Assembly (NCBI RefSeq): GCF_041248615.1
Contig: NZ_CP158426.1
Reading direction: 5' to 3' (one strand)
DNA from: Escherichia coli
GTDB lineage: Bacteria > Pseudomonadota > Gammaproteobacteria > Enterobacterales > Enterobacteriaceae
Length of the DNA stretch: 64,000 bases
Shown: positions 1,185 through 61,212 of the stretch, piece by piece
Position numbering within the stretch: position 1 is the stretch's first letter
How the letters are laid out: each line of letters begins with the position of its first letter
The notes under the pieces: generated by a model
What the model saw: the letters and a program-made list of their open reading frames with translations, nothing else
What the model was told of the DNA's origin: nothing
Database searches by the model: none
Program-made: the position numbers and the translations under genes

Positions 1185-1317
1185 AACCAAACGACTCGGG
1201 GTGCCCTTCTGCGTGAAGGCTGAGAAATACCCGTATCACCTGATCTGGATAATGCCAGCGTAGGGAAGTCACGGACCACCAGGTCATTGCTTCTTCACGT
1301 TATGGCAGGAGCAAACT
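1185..1317 (+). promoter_or_regulatory. TPP (thi-box) riboswitch in the thiM 5' leader
   Basis: Sequence AACCAAACGACTCGGGGTGCCCTTCTGCGTGAAGGCTGAGAAATACCCGTATCACCTGATCTGGATAATGCCAGCGTAGGGAA matches the well-known thiM TPP aptamer (CUGAGA motif, P1-P5 arrangement), directly upstream of the thiM ATG. Confidence 0.9.
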
Positions 1318-17453: not shown

Positions 17454-17480
17454 AAAAAATAAGCCCGTGTAAGGGAGATT
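17454..17480. other. 27-bp phage P2 attachment-site core (AAAAAATAAGCCCGTGTAAGGGAGATT) overlapping the cyaR 3' end; apparently unoccupied
   Basis: Exact 27-mer present in the sequence; identification as the P2 att core is from memory of the literature. Confidence 0.5.
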
Positions 17481-17540
17481 ACACAGGCTAAGGAGGTGGT
17501 TCCTGGTACAGCTAGCATTTTATGGGTTATGTTTTTCAGC
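17454..17540 (-). ncRNA. cyaR: CyaR (RyeE) CRP-dependent Hfq-binding sRNA
   Basis: Reverse complement equals GCTGAAAAACATAACCCATAAAATGCTAGCTGTACCAGGAACCACCTCCTTAGCCTGTGTAATCTCCCTTACACGGGCTTATTTTTT, including terminator hairpin and U-tail; possible TCACA CRP half-site upstream on the minus strand. Confidence 0.85.
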
Positions 17541-17624
17541 GAAACGGATGATAACCTTAATAAATGCAGCTGTATGTGATCGGTTTCTAAGAATTTTCCA
17601 TCCGGGAAAAATAATCGAAATTAA

Positions 17625-26258: not shown

Positions 26259-29200
26259 TTACGCCTCCTCTTCATGACGGGCAAAGCGGCTTTTGGTCCA
26301 CAATGCCAGGCGGTCGAATAGCAGATAAATCACTGGCGTGGTAAACAGCGTCAGCACCTGGCTGACAATCAGACCGCCGACCATGCCGATACCTAACGGA
26401 CGACGCAGTTCCGCGCCGACCCCGGTACTCAACATCAGCGGCAGCGCGCCAAGCAGAGCCGCCAGAGTGGTCATCAGGATCGGACGAAAACGCAACAGAC
26501 AAGCCTGGTAGATGGCATCGCGCGGCGACATGCCTTGCTCGCGCTCAGCAGCCAGCGCGAAGTCGATCATCATGATGGCGTTCTTCTTCACGATACCGAT
26601 CAGCAAAATAATGCCGATAATGGCAATCACATCCAGTTCGCTACCGGCAATCATTAACGCCAGCAGTGCGCCGACCCCTGCGGTGGGTAGCGTCGAGAGA
26701 ATGGTGATCGGGTGAATAAAGCTCTCGTACAGAATGCCGAGCACGATATACATCGCCACCACCGCCGCGACAATCAGCCAGACAGTGCTGCCCAACGCCG
26801 ACTGGAAGGCGAGGGTGCTGCCCTGGAACTGCGTGGTGATATCCACCGGCAGATTCAGCGTCTTTTCGGTGTCCATAATCGCCTGCACCGCATCGCCCAG
26901 CGAATAGTTATCCGGCACGTTAAAGGAGATGGTCGTTACCGGGAACTGATCCAGATGGTTGATGGAAAGCGGCGCAAAACGCTGCTCAATTTTGGCAATT
27001 GAGCTTAACGGCACCACTCCACCGTCGCTGCTGGTCAGGCGAATGGTATCCAGCGCCGCGAGGCCTGGGGTATTTTCGGTGTTGTGTTCCAGCACCACGC
27101 GATACTGGTTAGCCTGAGTATAAATAGTGGAAATCAGCCGCTGACCAAACGCGTTGTACAGGGCGTTATCGACATCCGCCATGCTGATCCCCAGACGGCT
27201 GGCGCTGTCGCGATCAACATTGACATACGCCACCAGCCCTTTGTCCTGCCAGTCGCTGGAGACATCAGATAGCTGTGGCAGCTGCTGGAGTTTTTCCATC
27301 AACTGTGGCACCCAGGTACTGAGCGCATCCAGTGACGTGGCCTGCAAGGTAAACTGGTACTGGGTGCGGCTGACCTGAGTATCGATGGTCAGGTCCTGCG
27401 TTGGTTGCAGGAAGAGATCGACGCCCGGCACTTTATCCACCGCCGTTTGCAGACGGGCGATGACTTTTTGCACCCGATCATCACGTTCATCCAACGGTTT
27501 GAGGTTGATCTGCAAACGCGCACTGTTCAGCGACGGGTTAGTGCCATCAACGCCAACAAACGAGGTCAGGCTTTGCACTGCCGGATCCTGCAAAATCACA
27601 TCCGCGACCTGGCGTTGCCGCTGGGCCATATTGGCAAAGGAGCTGGATTGCGGTGCCTGCAAAGTGCCCTGAATAATGCCGTTGTCCTGTACCGGGAAGA
27701 AACCTTTCGGAATGAACACCCACAACAGCACGCTAAGCAGCAGCGTGCTGAGCGCCACGCTTAAGGTCAGCCACGGATGATTCAGCACTTTCGCCAGTCC
27801 ACGACCATAGGCGGTGATTATCCTGTCGAACATTTTCTCCAAGGCTCGGGAGAAGCGGTTCTGTTTACGCAGCGACTCCTGGCTGAGCATCCGCGCGCAC
27901 ATCATCGGTGTCAGGGTCAGCGACACCACTGCTGAGATCAAAATCGCGACGGCCAGAGTAATAGCAAATTCGCGGAACAGTCGCCCGACGATATCGCCCA
28001 TAAACAGCAGTGGGATCAACACCGCAATCAGTGAGAAGGTCAGCGAGATAATGGTAAAGCCGATTTCACCTGCGCCTTTGAGCGCCGCCGCCAGCGGTTT
28101 TTCGCCTTTTTCGATATAGCGCGAAATGTTCTCGATCACCACGATGGCGTCATCGACCACGAATCCGGTGGCGATAGTTAACGCCATCAGCGTCAGGTTA
28201 TTGATCGAAAAATCGAGAAACACCATAACCGCGAAAGTGCCGATTAACGACAGCGGTACAGCAACACCGGGAATGATGGTCGCCGGAATATTGCGCAAAA
28301 ACAGGTAGATAATCATGACTACCAGCGCGATAGCCATCATCAATTCAAACTGGGTATCGTTGACCGATGCGCGGATGTTGGTGGTGCGGTCAGAAAGCAC
28401 TGTCACCTTCACCGATTTCGGCAAACTCTCGGTGAGCTGTGGCAGCATCTGCCGGATGCTGTCGGCGGTGGAGATAATGTTAGCACCGGGCTGGCGCTGA
28501 ACATTCATCACAATGGCCTGTTCTTTGTTCGCCCACGCGCCGAGCCAGCTGTTTTCTGCTCCTTGCTCTACGGTTGCGACATCGCCCAGACGAATCGGCG
28601 CGCCGTTCTGGTAGGCAATAATTAGCTGGCGATACTCTTCGGCGGATTGCATCTGGTCGTTCGCGGAAAGGGTGACCGCGCGGGAAGGGCCGTCGAGGCT
28701 ACCTTTTGCCGAGTTAACGTTAGCGCCGGTAATAGCGGTGCGCACGGTTTCGCTGGTCAGGCCGAGGGCGGCAATCGCCTGAGCGTTAAGTTTGACACGA
28801 ACAGCCGGACGCTGGCCGCTGGAAAGCGTCACCAGGCCGACACCGGAAATCTGCGAGATTTTCTGCGCGACGCGGGTTTCCACCATATCTTCCACTTGCG
28901 TCATTGGCATGGCGGTTGAGGTGACGGCGAGCGTCATGATTGGTGGATCTGCCGGGTTCACTTTGCTGTAAACCGGCGGGTTAGGCAGATCGCTCGGCAA
29001 CAAGTTGGTCGCAGCGTTAATCGCGGCCTGCACTTCCTGCTCGGCGACATCCAGCGGTAATGTTAGCTGGAACTGCAAAGTGATAACTGACGCACCGCCG
29101 GAACTTTGCGACGACATCTGTTTCAGGCCAGACATCTGCCCAAACTGGCGTTCAAGCGGCGCGGTAACGGCAGAGGTCATGACATCCGGGCTCGCACCTG

Positions 29201-29381
29201 GGTAGAGCGTGACTACCTGAATGGTCGGATAGTCCACTTCCGGCAGCGCCGAAACGGGCAGGGCTCGATAACCGATAATCCCGGCGAGTAAGATCGCCAC
29301 CATCAGCAGCGTGGTGGCGACAGGACGCATAATAAACAGGCGCGACGGGCCGCCTGTGCTGCTCGGGGGTAACACCTGCAT
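26259..29381 (-). CDS. mdtB: RND multidrug efflux pump subunit
   Basis: 1040 aa RND protein [34 protein letters not shown]...; overlaps mdtA stop. Confidence 0.95.
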
Positions 29382-30628
29382 CAGGAGCGTGCTCCTTTTT
29401 TCGCGTATTCGCGGCTGGTGGCTTTCTCTTCCGGAGTGGTGGCGCTCTGGGCTTCCACTACTTCCACTTTCGCCCCTTCGGTCAGGCGATCAATGCCGTC
29501 TGTCACTACGCGGTCGCCCGCAGAAATACCTGCGCGGATCACCACTTTCTGACTGTCCTGAATGCCCGGCGTCACCAGATGTTTGCTGACCTTGTTTTCG
29601 CTATTCAGCACCCAGACAAAATGGCCTTCGTTGCCCATTTGCAGAGCGGCGGTGGGGATCACTACGGCGTTTTGTTCGGTGTCGACTAACATACGCGCGT
29701 TAACAAACTGATTGGGAAACAGCGCATCATCCTGATTATTAAAGCGTGCTTTCACTTTAATCGTACCGGTAGTGGCATCGATTTGGTTATCGAGACTTAA
29801 CAGCGTGCCTTCACTTAATTTCTTCGAGTTGGTGCGATCCCAGGCTTCAACAACCAGCGGTTTTCCGGCTTTTTGCGCCTGTACTACGGTAGCGATATCG
29901 CTTTCCGGCAGGGTAAAGAGCAAATCGATAGGATGCGTCTGGGTGATCACCACAATCCCGGTGGTATCACCACTGGAGATTTGGTTACCAACATCAACCT
30001 GCTTGAGACCAACGCGACCATCGATTGGTGCGGTGATGCGGCTCCAGTCGAGCTGCAGCTGCGCGCTGGCGACGCTTGCTTCATCAGCCTTAATGGTGCC
30101 TTCGGTTTCACTGACCAGCGCCTGTTGGGCATCCAGCTCCTGGCGGGAGACAAGATTGGTTTTTGCCAGTTGTTGATAACGCGCCAGGTCACGGCGGGCG
30201 TTGGCAAGCGTGGCTTTATCTTTTGCCAGTTGGCCCTGGGCTTGTGCTAATGCAACTTTGAACTGGCTTGGGTCAATTTCTGCCAGTAAATCGCCTGCTT
30301 TGACCTGCTGGCCTTCCTGGAAATGTAACGCCATCAGTTGACCGTCCACGCGGCTGCGCACCGTAACGGTATTAGCGGCGGTAATGGTGCCAAGCCCGGT
30401 GAGATAACGTGGCACAGCTTGTTCTACGGCAGTCGCCGCCTGAACCGGGGCTAATGGGCCGGCACGCATACCACGGCGACCACCCGCTGGCGATTGCTGC
30501 GCTTGTTTCGTCGCCCCTGGGGCTGCACTCTGGGAGTCATTGCGGCCTTGCCAGAACCAGAATGCGGCGATGGCGGCGATAACCAACACGATTACGATTA
30601 CCCAACGGGATTTATAACTGCCTTTCAT
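29381..30628 (-). CDS. mdtA: Membrane fusion protein of the MdtABC efflux system
   Basis: ORF 29381..30775 trimmed to [27 protein letters not shown]... (415 aa); the upstream in-frame extension is unlikely to be coding. Confidence 0.9.
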
Positions 30629-30681
30629 CGTTAAGAGTTTCTCTTCCTGAAACGTTTCACGGAATGATACTAGTGTAGCCA

Positions 30682-30699
30682 GCCAATAAGGGAGAAAAA
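30682..30699 (-). promoter_or_regulatory. Candidate BaeR box upstream of mdtA
   Basis: Minus-strand sequence TTTTTCTCCCTTATTGGC closely matches my recalled BaeR consensus TTTTTCTCCATDATTGGC; located about 55-70 nt upstream of the mdtA start. Confidence 0.5.
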
Positions 30700-30856
30700 T
30701 GGAGGAATTATGAAACACTGTCGGGAATCGTCTGAATGACGGGCACATTTGCGAGCACGCATCCAGTAATAACACATGAAACTATTTTATCTGCAAGTTA
30801 GCGATAGACTGCTTGCATGGCGAAAGGAGGTAAGCCGCCGTTTTCAGCGGGACGCT

Positions 30857-30999
30857 GAAACGGGAAAGCCCCTCCCGAGGAAGGGGCCTTAAATAAGGAA
30901 AGGGTCATGATGAAGCTACTCATCATCGTGGTGCTCTTAGTGATTAGCTACCCAGCATACTAAGACTACCAGGGCGGGGGAAACCCCGCTCTACCCTCA
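30857..30999 (-). ncRNA. Sib antisense RNA (SibB-like), copy 1
   Basis: Minus-strand promoter TTGACA-17nt-TACTTT (31034..31006) and hairpin GCCCCT/AGGGGC followed by U-run near 30857-30887; transcript fully overlaps the ibs ORF. Ends are approximate. Confidence 0.6.
30907..30963 (+). CDS. Type I toxin Ibs (18 aa, MMKLLIIVVLLVISYPAY), IbsB-like
   Basis: Short hydrophobic ORF with SD AAGGAAAGGG upstream; matches recalled Ibs family; too short for the ORF track. Confidence 0.75.
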   Translation: MMKLLIIVVLLVISYPAY

Positions 31000-31184
31000 C
31001 TCCTGAAAGTATGCCTTCACGATAAGATTGTCAATCTGCAGGCTTTGCAGTCTGCGATCCTGCCAGCAAATATTCTTTGCGAGACGTTACGCAATAATCA
31101 CACTGGAAACTATTTTATCCGCAAGTCAGCGATAGACTGCATACAGGGCGAAAGGAGGTAAGCCGACGATTTCAGCGGGACGCT

Positions 31185-31327
31185 GAAACGGGAAAGCCCC
31201 TCCCGAGGAAGGGGCCTTAAATAAGGAAAGGGTCATGATGAAGATACTCATCATCGTGGTGCTCTTAGTGATTAGCTACCCAGCATACTAAGACTACCAG
31301 GGCGGGGGAAACCCCGCTCTACCCTCA
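31185..31327 (-). ncRNA. Sib antisense RNA, copy 2
   Basis: Same promoter and terminator as copy 1, shifted by 328 bp. Confidence 0.6.
31235..31291 (+). CDS. Type I toxin Ibs (18 aa, MMKILIIVVLLVISYPAY), IbsB-like, second copy
   Basis: Same unit as copy 1 shifted by 328 bp; one substitution (L4I). Confidence 0.75.
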   Translation: MMKILIIVVLLVISYPAY

Positions 31328-31513
31328 CTCCTGAAAGTATGCCTTCACGATAAGATTGTCAATCCGCAGGCTTTGCAGTCTGCGATCCTGCCAGCAAATA
31401 TTCTTTGCGAGTCGTTACGCAATAATCACAGAGGAAACTATTTTGGTCACGCGTTAGCGATAGACTGCATTCAGGGCGAAAGGAGGTAAGCCGACGATTT
31501 CAGCGGGACGCTG

Positions 31514-31662
31514 AAACGGGAAACCCTCTCCCGGAGAAGAGGGCTTTTAATAAGGAAAGGGTTATGATGAAGCACGTCATCATACTGGAGATACTCTTAG
31601 TGATTAGCTTCCAGGCTTACTAAGAACACCAGGGGGAGGGAGAAACCTCTCCCTAACCCTCA
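31514..31662 (-). ncRNA. Sib antisense RNA (SibA-like), copy 3
   Basis: Minus-strand promoter TTGACA-17nt-TAATTT; terminator hairpin CCCTCT/AGAGGG plus U-run. Ends are approximate. Confidence 0.55.
31564..31623 (+). CDS. Type I toxin Ibs (19 aa, MMKHVIILEILLVISFQAY), IbsA-like
   Basis: Diverged third unit; SD AAGGAAAGGG conserved. Confidence 0.7.
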   Translation: MMKHVIILEILLVISFQAY

Positions 31663-31843
31663 CTCCTGAAATTATGTCACTCCGCCCTTAGTGTCAATCG
31701 ACGGCTCTCCGTTCTTGCGAGGCGAATAGCAAAATTTTCTGCGCCGCCGGGCCTAATTCTGAAAGTTTCTTCGTTTGCTCTTATTTCATTATTGCAATCG
31801 GTATGATACCGGGCCTCAATAATTCTCTAAGAAAGGATTTCTT

Positions 31844-32503: not shown

Positions 32504-33261
32504 GCTGGCGTCTGGTCTATGCATCAACCGTTGGAACGTCGCACATCAGCGCGGACTTGCCTTGCCAGGATGCCTGCCAGATGCAGGTTGCCTGGTTAAA
32601 TGACCAGCAGCCATTATTGTCGGTATTTGTCGCCGATGGCGCAGGTAGCGTCTCGCAGGGTGGCGAAGGTGCGGAGCTTGCCGTTAATGAAGCGATGGCT
32701 TATATGATGCAAAAATTGCAGGGCGGGGAATTGGGGCTTAATGATGTCCTCGCAACGGATATTGTGCTGACCGTTCGTCAGCGACTTTTTGCCGAGGCGG
32801 AAGCCAAAGAATTAGCTGTTCGCGATTTTGCCTGCACGTTTATGGGATTGATTTCATCAGCTAATGGCACCCTGATTATGCAGATTGGCGATGGCGGCGT
32901 GGTGGTAGATTTGGGGCACGGTCTGCAACTGCCGCTCACGCCGATGGTAGGTGAATATGCCAATATGACACACTTCATTACTGATGAAGATGCCGTTTCC
33001 AGACTGGAAACTTTCACCAGCACTGAGCGTGCGCATAAAGTTGCAGCATTTACGGATGGTATCCAGCGGCTGGCGTTAAATATGCTGGATAATTCTCCCC
33101 ATGTGCCTTTCTTTACCCCGTTTTTCAATGGGCTGGCGTCAGCAACGCAGGAACAACTCGATTTATTACCTGAATTGTTAAAGCAGTTTTTGTCCAGCCC
33201 GGCGGTAAACGAGCGTACGGATGATGATAAAACGTTGGCACTGGCGCTGTGGTTACCATGA
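32500..33261 (+). CDS. yegK: PP2C-family protein Ser/Thr phosphatase
   Basis: 253 aa; GTG start overlapping the yegL stop (GTGA); metal-binding Asp/Gly-rich motif ([30 protein letters not shown]). Confidence 0.85.
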
Positions 33262-35198
33262 AACCCACTTTATATACTGCTACTGGTGAGTGCGTTACGC
33301 CAGGCTGTGAACTGGGCAAAGGTGGCGAAGGCGCGGTTTATGATATCGAGGAGTTTGTCGATAGCGTCGCCAAGATTTATCACACGCCGCCACCCGCCTT
33401 AAAACAGGACAAACTTGCCTTTATGGCTGCGACAGCTGACGCACAGTTGCTGAATTATGTCGCCTGGCCGCAGGCAACGCTTCACGGTGGACGAGGCGGA
33501 AAAGTTATCGGTTTTATGATGCCAAAAGTTTCTGGTAAAGAACCGATTCATATGATCTATAGCCCGGCACATCGTCGCCAGAGTTACCCTCATTGTGCGT
33601 GGGATTTTCTACTCTATGTTGCGCGTAATATTGCTTCATCTTTTGCTACGGTTCACGAGCACGGGCATGTCGTGGGTGACGTAAACCAGAACAGCTTTAT
33701 GGTAGGCCGTGACAGCAAAGTGGTGTTGATTGATAGCGACTCCTTTCAGATTAACGCCAACGGCACACTGCATTTATGCGAAGTCGGCGTGTCGCATTTT
33801 ACGCCGCCAGAGCTGCAAACCTTGCCATCATTTGTCGGCTTTGAACGCACCGCGAATCACGATAATTTTGGCCTTGCGTTGCTGATTTTTCACGTCTTGT
33901 TTGGTGGTCGGCATCCTTATTCCGGTGTACCGCTTATCTCTGATGCGGGTAATGCGCTGGAGACGGATATTGCCCATTTCCGTTATGCCTACGCGTCAGA
34001 TAATCAGCGACGTGGTTTAAAACCGCCGCCACGATCTATTCCGCTGTCGATGTTACCGGGCGATGTTGAAGCCATGTTTCAGCAGGCATTCACGGAAAGT
34101 GGCGTGGCAACCGCGCGTCCGACGGCAAAAGCGTGGGTAGCGGCACTTGATTTACTACGCCAACAGTTAAAGAAATGTACCGTTTCGGCAATGCATGTTT
34201 ACCCCGGTCATTTGACTGACTGCCCGTGGTGTGCGCTGGATAATCAAGGCGTTATCTATTTTATTGATCTCGGCGAAGAGGTCATTACCACCGGCGGTGA
34301 TTTTGTGCTGGCGAAAGTCTGGGCAATGGTGATGGCGTCAGTAGCACCACCAGCATTGCAACTGCCATTACCCGATCATTTCCAACCGACTGGCAGGCCG
34401 CTTCCTTTAGGCCTGTTACGGCGTGAATACATCATTCTGATTGAGATCGCACTGTCAGCGTTATCGCTGCTGCTTTGCGGCCTTCAGGTAGAACCGCGTT
34501 ATATCATTTTGGTTCCCGTGCTGGCGGCTATCTGGATTATTGGCAGCCTGACAAGCAAAGCGTACAAAGCAGAAATCCAGCAACGTCGTGAGGCGTTTAA
34601 TCGCGCGAAAATGGACTATGACCATTTAGTAAGCCAGATCCAACGGCTGGGCGGGCTGGAAGGTTTTATCGCCAAACGGGCGATGATCGAAAAAATGAAG
34701 GACGAAATTCTCGGGTTACCGGAAGAGGAGAAACGCGCTCTGGCAGCACTTCATGACACTGCAAGGGAACGGCAGAAGCAGAAGTTTCTGGAGGGATTTT
34801 TTATTGATGTTGCCTCTATTCCCGGCGTTGGCCCTGCGCGTAAAGCGGCGTTACGGTCTTTTGGTATTGAAACAGCCGCAGATGTTACCCGTCGTGGCGT
34901 TAAGCAAGTGAAAGGGTTTGGCGACCATCTGACCCAGGCGGTTATCGACTGGAAAGCGAGTTGTGAACGCCGTTTTGTGTTCAGGCCGAACGAAGCGGTA
35001 ACGCCTGCAGACAGACAAGCGGTACTGACTAAAATGGCCGCCAAACGACATCGGCTGGAATCGACGTTGACTGTCGGCGCGACAGAGTTGCAGCGATTCC
35101 GCCTTCAAGCTCCAGCACGGACCATGCCGTTGATGGAACCGTTACGTCAGGCGGCAGAAAAACTGGCTCAGGCGCAGGCTGAATTAAGCCGTTGCTGA
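33258..35198 (+). CDS. yegI: Atypical eukaryotic-like Ser/Thr protein kinase with membrane segment and C-terminal HhH-like region
   Basis: ATG overlaps the yegK stop (ATGA); alternative GTG at 33249. Gly-rich loop GKGGEGAVY, candidate Lys in VAKIYH, divergent catalytic loop HVVGDVNQNS, DSD in place of DFG. Confidence 0.8.
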   Translation: MKPTLYTATGECVTPGCELGKGGEGAVYDIEEFVDSVAKIYHTPPPALKQDKLAFMAATADAQLLNYVAWPQATLHGGRGGKVIGFMMPKVSGKEPIHMIYSPAHRRQSYPHCAWDFLLYVARNIASSFATVHEHGHVVGDVNQNSFMVGRDSKVVLIDSDSFQINANGTLHLCEVGVSHFTPPELQTLPSFVGFERTANHDNFGLALLIFHVLFGGRHPYSGVPLISDAGNALETDIAHFRYAYASDNQRRGLKPPPRSIPLSMLPGDVEAMFQQAFTESGVATARPTAKAWVAALDLLRQQLKKCTVSAMHVYPGHLTDCPWCALDNQGVIYFIDLGEEVITTGGDFVLAKVWAMVMASVAPPALQLPLPDHFQPTGRPLPLGLLRREYIILIEIALSALSLLLCGLQVEPRYIILVPVLAAIWIIGSLTSKAYKAEIQQRREAFNRAKMDYDHLVSQIQRLGGLEGFIAKRAMIEKMKDEILGLPEEEKRALAALHDTARERQKQKFLEGFFIDVASIPGVGPARKAALRSFGIETAADVTRRGVKQVKGFGDHLTQAVIDWKASCERRFVFRPNEAVTPADRQAVLTKMAAKRHRLESTLTVGATELQRFRLQAPARTMPLMEPLRQAAEKLAQAQAELSRC

Positions 35199-40909: not shown

Positions 40910-41226
40910 TACCGCTTTATCCGCAAGACCAGGTCGCCAGTATTCGTTTCTGTGTTTATGCTAGTACAAAAGTTTTACATTTTATATGCGAATTGCTCAT
41001 AAAGTGACGTAAAGGCGGATAATTTGCGCAACGGCGTATAACATTTTTTACCTTGTATAAAACTGATCAACGTAATTTGCCACCGGGAATTCTTTGTCAA
41101 CAATTAACTCTGAGCGCGCGGCAACGCTATTCGACTGGTATCAGGCGGATGAAATCCCTATAATTGCCGCGTTTGGCGCTTCGTCGCCCCCTTCCTAACA
41201 TCCAGGTTAATCAGGTCGCTAAATAT

Positions 41227-41868
41227 ATGACTGATCAGTCTCATCAGTGCGTCATTATCGGTATCGCTGGCGCATCGGCTTCCGGCAAGAGTCTTATTGC
41301 CAGTACCCTTTATCGTGAATTACGTGAGCAAGTCGGTGATGAACACATCGGCGTAATTCCCGAAGACTGCTATTACAAAGATCAAAGCCATCTGTCGATG
41401 GAAGAACGCGTTAAGACCAACTACGACCATCCCAGCGCGATGGATCACAGCCTGCTGCTTGAGCATTTACAAGCGTTGAAACGCGGCTCGGCAATTGACC
41501 TGCCGGTTTACAGCTATGTTGAACATACGCGTATGAAAGAAACGGTGACGGTTGAGCCGAAGAAAGTCATCATTCTCGAAGGCATTTTGCTGCTAACGGA
41601 TGCGCGTTTGCGTGATGAACTTAACTTCTCAATTTTCGTTGATACCCCGCTGGATATCTGCCTGATGCGCCGCATCAAGCGTGACGTTAACGAGCGTGGG
41701 CGTTCAATGGATTCAGTGATGGCGCAATATCAAAAAACCGTGCGTCCGATGTTCCTGCAATTCATTGAGCCTTCTAAACAATATGCGGACATTATCGTGC
41801 CGCGCGGCGGGAAAAACCGCATCGCCATCGATATATTGAAAGCGAAAATAAGTCAGTTCTTTGAATAA
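41227..41868 (+). CDS. udk: Uridine/cytidine kinase
   Basis: ORF 41164..41868 trimmed to [22 protein letters not shown] (213 aa); P-loop. Confidence 0.9.
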
Positions 41869-46467: not shown

Positions 46468-46760
46468 TATGGAGACACAATATTAAATATTGTCAACCTA
46501 AAGAAACTCCTAAAAACCATATTGAATGACACTTAATATAATTCTTAAAAATAGCCAATTGCCGAATTGTTACCTTGCCTGCTATTCCGTTAGCTGTAAC
46601 ACTTCCTCCTGCATTATTGGAGAGCCAATCTTCAATTACCATAATGTCACCTTATATTCGGAAGTTAATTTCCGCAATAACCCTTTCTCATCAACGACTG
46701 TATGTTGAGAGGGTTTTAAAAATTAAGCTAAATCAGTATATTGGTAGCTAAAAAGCCAGG

Positions 46761-46772
46761 GGCGGTAGCGTG
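46761..46772 (+). promoter_or_regulatory. ops element (GGCGGTAGCGTG) within a JUMPstart sequence in the wza leader; RfaH-dependent antitermination signal
   Basis: Exact match to GGCGGTAGNNTG about 180 nt upstream of the wza start. Confidence 0.65.
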
Positions 46773-61111: not shown

Positions 61112-61212
61112 CAGTTGAATAATCAACCGGATTAATTCTCCGGTAAATAACGACAAAAACAAAATTGGCCGTTTCGGTCAGGGCCAACTATTGCCTGAAA
61201 AAGGGTAACGAT

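Follow-up and report, generated by a model that had tools for sequence, protein, structure and literature searches.

A perfect Cra-box palindrome in the mdtA leader of an Escherichia coli strain: a candidate operator completed by a rare allele

The operon mdtABCD-baeSR encodes an RND efflux pump plus its own two-component regulator. In the Escherichia coli strain studied here, a perfect 12-bp palindrome, TGAAACGTTTCA, lies just upstream of its first gene, mdtA, and has the appearance of an operator for Cra (FruR). This raises the question of whether the palindrome may serve as a Cra operator, whether it belongs to another LacI-family repressor or to an RNA hairpin in the 5' UTR, or whether the resemblance to a Cra site is incidental. 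We examined a stretch of 64,000 nucleotides of the E. coli chromosome, hereafter called the window, together with the corresponding mdtA leaders of other genomes.

Layout of the mdtA leader

The minus strand carries mdtA (ATG at 30628-30626), which matching E. coli genomes annotate as encoding the MdtA subunit of an RND efflux transporter. In the mdtA sense, the leader is arranged as TTTTTCTCCCTTATTGGC - TGGC - TACACTAGTAT - CATTCCG - TGAAACGTTTCA - GGAAGAGAAACTCTTAACG - ATG, and its features are listed in Table 1. An earlier note on this DNA had placed the palindrome 20-31 nt from the mdtA start, between a candidate BaeR box and the ribosome-binding site. A check of the sequence confirmed its exact letters, its coordinates and this distance, as well as the placement: the BaeR-box-like TTTTTCTCCCTTATTGGC was found on the 5' side of the palindrome and an AGGA-containing block on its 3' side. 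No other exact copy of the 12-mer is present in the window.

Table 1. Features of the mdtA leader and their coordinates in the 64-kb window
Feature	Position	Strand	Remark
TGAAACGTTTCA, a perfect 12-bp palindrome with the sequence of the Cra box and of the fruB O1 core	30648..30659		-31 to -20 from ATG
Operator-sized 16-bp stretch CCTGAAACGTTTCACG	30646..30661	+	Best Cra-PWM match in the 64-kb window, 18.6 bits
Polymorphic base completing the palindrome	30659		A on + strand, T in mdtA sense
Block TTCAGGAAGAGA, conserved as TTCAGGA(N)GAGA	30640..30651	-	Overlaps the ATG-proximal dyad half
Candidate -10 hexamers TACACT (30677-30672) and TAGTAT (30672-30667)		-	From sequence and conservation
BaeR-box-like region	30682..30715	-	TTTTTCTCCCTTATTGGC at 30699-30682; TTTCATAATTCCTCCATTTTT at 30715-30695
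mdtA CDS, 415 aa, first gene of mdtABCD-baeSR	29381..30628	-	

Within the BaeR-box-like region, TTTCATAATTCCTCCATTTTT was more broadly conserved than TTTTTCTCCCTTATTGGC. The BaeR consensus is said to have been given by Nishino et al. in 2005 as TTTTTCTCCATDATTGGC. Besides, a direct repeat, CAGAC-N5-C(A/C)GAC, was observed at 30717-30733 (minus strand) in a conserved upstream block. Its period of about 10 bp is as expected for an OmpR-family response regulator, and the window has CCCGAC here versus CCAGAC in K-12. In RegulonDB-derived lists used in a BaeR/CpxR study, BaeR and CpxR are the only regulators given for mdtA.

Between the BaeR-box-like region and the palindrome, TACACTAGTAT holds two overlapping -10 candidates, both of which fall inside the conserved stretch CTA(A/C)ACTAGTATCATT. 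This conservation would mark the stretch as the mdtA core promoter. If TACACT serves as the -10 element, transcription would start near 30665 and the palindrome would occupy about +7 to +18; if TAGTAT is used, the start would be near 30660 and the palindrome would extend from about +2 to +13. With either start, a dimer bound to the palindrome would thus lie within the footprint of RNA polymerase. A generic sigma-70 scan missed the activator-dependent core promoter of mdtA and found only TTCAGA-18-CATAAT farther upstream (30736-30707), and so gave no help in locating the start.

Three full-length SIB_RNA copies (Sib antitoxin / Ibs toxin) were also detected upstream of mdtA, at 30892-31034, 31220-31362 and 31549-31697 on the minus strand. 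K-12 MG1655 has two at this place (sibA/ibsA and sibB/ibsB), and so the strain studied here carries an extra repeat unit.

Comparison with known Cra operators

The proximal operator of fruB has been reported as TTCTTGAAACGTTTCAGC, and the consensus operator used in pull-down experiments, O-cra, as GCTGAAACGTTTCA (PMC10760178). Elsewhere fruB O1 is given as TGAAACGTTTCA (PMC4050194), and the same 12-mer is named the Cra box (PMC4521459). The palindrome at mdtA is identical to this Cra box and to the 12-bp core that the O1 operator of the fruBKA promoter has in common with the synthetic O-cra, and its identity with fruB O1 reaches 13 nt (TGAAACGTTTCAG). Other published forms of the motif are a FruR consensus, GCTGAAACGTTTCAAG (PMC6263354), a ChIP-exo motif, ctgaAtCGaTtcag, which is close to gcTGAAtCGaTTCAgc (PMC5888115), and an older Cra consensus, RSTGAAWCSNTHHW (PMC5829826). 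The window site matched the ChIP-exo/RegPrecise motif gcTGAAtCGaTTCAgc and 13 of 14 positions of RSTGAAWCSNTHHW; when compared with the 12-16 bp forms of the Cra dyad (TGAAWCGWTTCA/gcTGAAtCGaTTCAgc/RSTGAAWCSNTHHW), it scored 12/12, 13/14 and 13/16. The earlier note had described an exact match to the symmetric form of the Cra/FruR half-site, and the identity with fruB O1 makes the case, as far as the sequence goes, stronger than it was put there.

We also ran the scan with a Cra position weight matrix (PWM) that the note had proposed. For the matrix, we used 12 sites from 11 promoters of Cra targets in K-12, chosen as the best consensus matches there. These best matches ranged from 10 to 12 of 12 and recovered both published fruB operators; in the promoters other than fruB, they reached 10 to 11 of 12. 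In leave-one-out scoring, the known Cra sites obtained 6.9 to 20.6 bits, with a median of 16.3. The mdtA site of the window obtained 18.6 bits on this matrix, which, being small and picked by best consensus match, ranks sites and is no proof of binding. With this score it was third, behind the two fruB operators, was the top match in the 64 kb, and was the only position there with at least 16.3 bits. On the same matrix the allele common in E. coli, CGAAACGTTTCA, scored 14.1 bits, rbsO 7.1 bits and the E. albertii version about 0 bits. Two further positions in the window, both of them inside ORFs, scored at least as high as the common allele. These next-best matches were located at 41702-41717 and 35087-35102 (15.5 and 14.9 bits), within long ORFs at 41164-41868 and 33249-35198, respectively, both on the plus strand, and are probably chance matches. 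Two intragenic matches of at least 14.1 bits in 64 kb correspond to about 100 or more such positions per genome. The mdtA site was the only high-scoring match in the window that was both intergenic and close to a promoter.

Palindromes of this length are not rare in themselves. The window contained 20 perfect 12-bp palindromes, and 20.7 ± 5.4 were expected in Markov-1 random sequence, so the idea of a statistical oddity was rejected. By chance, about 0.25 copies of the exact 12-mer are expected per 5 Mb, and about 1.0 to 1.2 of the degenerate form TGAAWCGWTTCA per genome; for 11/12 matches to TGAAWCGWTTCA, the chance expectation rises to about 37 per genome. No further match of at least 11/12 was found elsewhere in the 64-kb window, nor in 329 kb of flanking Enterobacteriaceae sequence outside the mdtA leader.

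The similarity to fruB extends to position, since the fruB sites are at -33 and -100 from the start codon and the mdtA site is at -31. However, fruB has two cooperating operators, whereas mdtA has one, with no second site of at least 10/12 nearby. The flanks also differ (CG...GG at mdtA versus CT...GC in fruB). K-12 fruB has the perfect core as a fixed sequence, which at mdtA is a rare allele, and mdtA is not a carbon-metabolism gene. A parallel to the proposed mdtA geometry is found at epd-pgk-fbaA and gapA, where the operator is located at or just past the start of an activator-dependent promoter (PMC5888115). Sites for Cra that span the start, as at epd, or follow the promoter, as at gapA, are reported to repress and to override the activator (PMC5888115). 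In these two cases the activator is CRP and binding was measured by ChIP-exo, whereas mdtA is activated by BaeR (and CpxR), and its start is a predicted one and its operator a candidate.

The classical example of occlusion by a LacI-family repressor is lacO1, at +11 of the lac promoter. The mdtA palindrome is likewise of the LacI-family operator type and would be centred about 8 to 13 nt past the start. It differs from lacO1 in both regulator and sequence, and its position depends on the predicted -10 element. The best reading of the palindrome appears to be that of a LacI-family-type DNA site which, in this strain, is a consensus-quality match for Cra.

Distribution of the dyad in E. coli and other Enterobacteriaceae

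Among 5,417 complete E. coli records, only 12 (~0.2%) had the allele with the perfect palindrome. It was counted by exact matches to 91-nt and 59-nt queries centred on the site, and the same 12 records were obtained both times; the matching 59-mer of K-12 was found exactly in 5,354 of the 5,417 records (98.8%). An alignment with K-12 MG1655 and three other strains showed that the site differs at one base only, the outermost one of the promoter-proximal half, which is T in the window and C in the others. The palindrome is therefore perfect only in a rare lineage, as the result of a single base change at 30659. The common allele carries C at this base in the mdtA sense (G on the plus strand) and is an 11/12 match, as in K-12 MG1655, where the site is located at 2,153,985-2,153,996 in the sibB-mdtA spacer; C was found at the outermost base in other Escherichia species as well.

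Across 3.1 kb of mdtA-mdtB, no record was closer to the window than the 12 carriers of T. Four of these carriers showed ~100% identity and eight 98.1%, and the next-closest records carried C. This observation fits a single origin of the T allele and not recurrent selection; a recurrent origin within E. coli was unsupported. With so few carriers, all of them nearest kin of the window, the perfect site is no feature of the species. Besides, strain 4621 was 100% identical to the window over 30400-31000 and only 98.1% identical over 27600-30700, a stretch over which four other genomes were ~100% identical. The pattern points to mosaicism by recombination within mdtA-mdtB among the genomes with the T allele.

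For comparison beyond E. coli, mdtA loci were taken from 80 species representatives, and 79 leaders plus the window were compared, of which 68 were distinct. The BaeR-proximal block, the -10 region, TTCAGGA(N)GAGA and ATGAAAGG were nearly invariant in this set. TTCAGGA(N)GAGA was kept in nearly all of the 68 distinct leaders, one of which has TCCAGGA. The AGGA of this block is the only SD-like sequence, at an unusually long distance of 16 nt from the ATG. The block also takes in GTTTCA, the dyad half nearer to the ATG, which is nearly fixed; the promoter-proximal half is only moderately conserved and drifts across species. Such asymmetry, with one half kept and the other loose, resembles that of many real Cra sites.

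When scored against TGAAWCGWTTCA, 6 of the 80 leaders matched at 12/12, 28 at 11/12, 16 at 10/12 and 30 at 9/12 or less. The 34 leaders with at least 11/12 were from Escherichia, Citrobacter, Raoultella and some Klebsiella. Citrobacter, Raoultella, some Klebsiella and Escherichia, with the exception of the E. albertii clade, in which 1 nt is deleted (GAAACGTTCA), kept the 10-bp dyad GAA(A/T)CGTTTC; its A/T variation falls on the consensus position W. Loss of the CpG or 1-nt indels at the centre of the dyad were observed in E. albertii, Enterobacter (including Enterobacter hormaechei and cloacae), Lelliottia, Kluyvera and Pseudescherichia; the indels, which alter the half-site spacing, occurred in E. 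albertii and several Enterobacter/Lelliottia species. A dimer operator of fixed spacing should not tolerate 1-nt indels at its centre, and these, together with the 30 leaders at 9/12 or less, count against Cra. The changes in spacing, and the location of the kept half within a longer block, speak against Cra as the main constraint on this sequence; the TTCAGGA(N)GAGA block could explain the conserved half without Cra. Thus, the Cra reading of the earlier note holds with regard to the sequence match to a Cra operator, and is weakened in that the perfect site is a rare allele and the dyad is kept in only some of the Enterobacteriaceae leaders.

Alternative readings and the possible role of Cra

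An explanation at the RNA level, a hairpin in the 5' UTR, was also mentioned in the earlier note. Such a hairpin (UUCC-G-UGAA / UUCA-GGAA) would sequester the AGGA, or UUUCA would pair with the start-codon region, modulating translation or stability. We consider this highly improbable. The extended form of the hairpin reached -5.5 kcal/mol with the window allele and -4.0 kcal/mol with the common allele, but the z-scores were only -1.8 and -1.0, and the 12-mer by itself formed no structure (0 kcal/mol). The GAA...UUC arms do persist in leaders where the centre has indels, yet compensatory changes were found in 0 of 8 pairs and the paired fraction equaled that of the shuffled control. Depending on the true start, the 5' arm may even lie outside the transcript. 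In the MFE fold of the whole leader, UUUCA (30648-30652) pairs with UGAAA (30623-30627, minus strand) in the start-codon region. This pairing is beyond the reach of covariation because both stretches are essentially invariant. However, the whole leader was no more stable than shuffled sequences (z = +0.2), RNAalifold found no consensus structure (0 pairs) in the 68 distinct leaders, and no Rfam family matched at gathering score, with chance-level matches only at E up to 10. On these folding energies, consensus folds, pair counts and Rfam searches, the hairpin, or a structured leader, was rejected. Elsewhere in the window, gathering-score matches were obtained for a TPP riboswitch (1187-1283, plus strand), the CyaR sRNA (17457-17542, minus strand), a JUMPstart element (46734-46772, plus strand) and the algC RNA motif (61159-61208, plus strand).

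At the DNA level, a central AACGTT/CG core is common to many LacI-family operators, and a different member of the family that uses the GAAACGTTTC core might recognize the site. Among these RbsR would be the leading candidate, although we find its involvement unlikely. For PurR, presumably, the outer GC positions do not fit the mdtA site. The RbsR operator rbsO, TCAGCGAAACGTTTCGCTGA (bioRxiv 10.1101/2025.04.02.646877), has the 10-bp centre GAAACGTTTC in common with mdtA. The common mdtA allele, in which GCGAAAC is joined to GTTTCAG, combines a perfect rbsO half-site with a perfect Cra half-site, and it matched GCGAAACGTTTCGC at 12 of 14 positions, one half-site being correct; with this allele, a role for RbsR is conceivable. 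In contrast, the other mdtA half, CTGAAAC, is of the Cra type and not the GCGAAAC of rbsO, and the window allele loses the RbsR-type base, shifting away from rbsO (11/14) and toward Cra (12/12). Also, the low score of rbsO on the Cra PWM indicates that the outer positions discriminate between the two regulators, and one mdtA half has them wrong for RbsR.

The main competitor of a Cra operator is an incidental resemblance. The leader would then be constrained by other needs, namely the BaeR-dependent promoter, the initial transcribed region and ribosome loading, its sequence would by coincidence be one step away from the Cra consensus, and a neutral C-to-T change in one lineage would have completed the palindrome without any meaningful role for Cra at mdtA. 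This is quite possible, and we regard it as nearly as likely as the Cra operator. It agrees with the chance-level number of palindromes in the window, with the expected 37 or so 11/12 sites per genome, with a common allele that scores no better than two intragenic sequences, and with a perfect allele confined to 0.2% of genomes, for which a single origin fits. Across the family, the outermost position switches between C and T (pair 20-32 is paired in 14 of 68 leaders), indels break the dyad in several clades, and the conserved half is a portion of a longer block kept in nearly all leaders. A link between Cra and mdtA is likewise not found in the open literature. On the other side, a sequence that shares 13 nt with the strongest natural Cra operator should be bound by Cra however it arose, a repressor bound at this site would hinder RNA polymerase, and matches of at least 11/12 were absent from the 329 kb of flanking Enterobacteriaceae sequence outside the leader.

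With regard to published work, no Cra/FruR link to mdtA or mdtABC was found in the open full-text literature, Cra site tables aside, in agreement with the earlier note, according to which a carbon-flux input into mdtABCD-baeSR is not known to have been described. The terms mdt, efflux and multidrug were absent from the main text of the Cra ChIP-exo paper (PMC5888115). The gold-standard supplement contained no entry for mdtA, and mdtA was not among the listed entries of a LacI-family comparative-genomics supplement, which lists regulogs and not genes.

Our preference, a tentative one held with slightly less than even confidence, is for a candidate Cra-type operator at the mdtA transcript start, which would be fruB-grade in this rare lineage, of mediocre quality in typical E. 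coli, and repressive through occlusion. At the BaeR-dependent mdtA promoter, a Cra dimer bound at about +2 to +18 would either occlude RNA polymerase or hold back its escape. When fructose-1-phosphate and fructose-1,6-bisphosphate are low, that is, on poor, gluconeogenic carbon, transcription of mdtABCD-baeSR would be expected to decrease, and glycolytic flux would relieve the block. The C-to-T change at 30659 would act as an operator-up mutation in this lineage, and Cra input through the 11/12 site of typical E. coli is probably weak. Here we infer the occupancy by Cra, the direction and size of its effect, and the start site.

A broader proposal is that Cra, bound where the mdtA transcript begins, provides an undescribed carbon-flux input on the BaeSR/MdtABCD envelope-stress efflux operon, and that the C-to-T change converted a weak ancestral site into a fruB-grade one in a single human-associated lineage, tying expression of the pump and of baeSR tightly to glycolytic flux. 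We consider it doubtful in this full form. Cra operators and repression by occlusion are textbook matters, so the mdtA case would offer no new mechanism, and its general relevance is limited because typical E. coli has the mediocre version of the site. A practical result is that the "ideal" Cra site was shown to be strain-specific. If Cra does occupy the site, expression of mdtABCD-baeSR would be held down on poor carbon sources and freed again on sugars, the rare allele would represent a natural one-base gain of an operator, and the status of central carbon metabolism would be joined to envelope-stress signalling and to drug and metal efflux.
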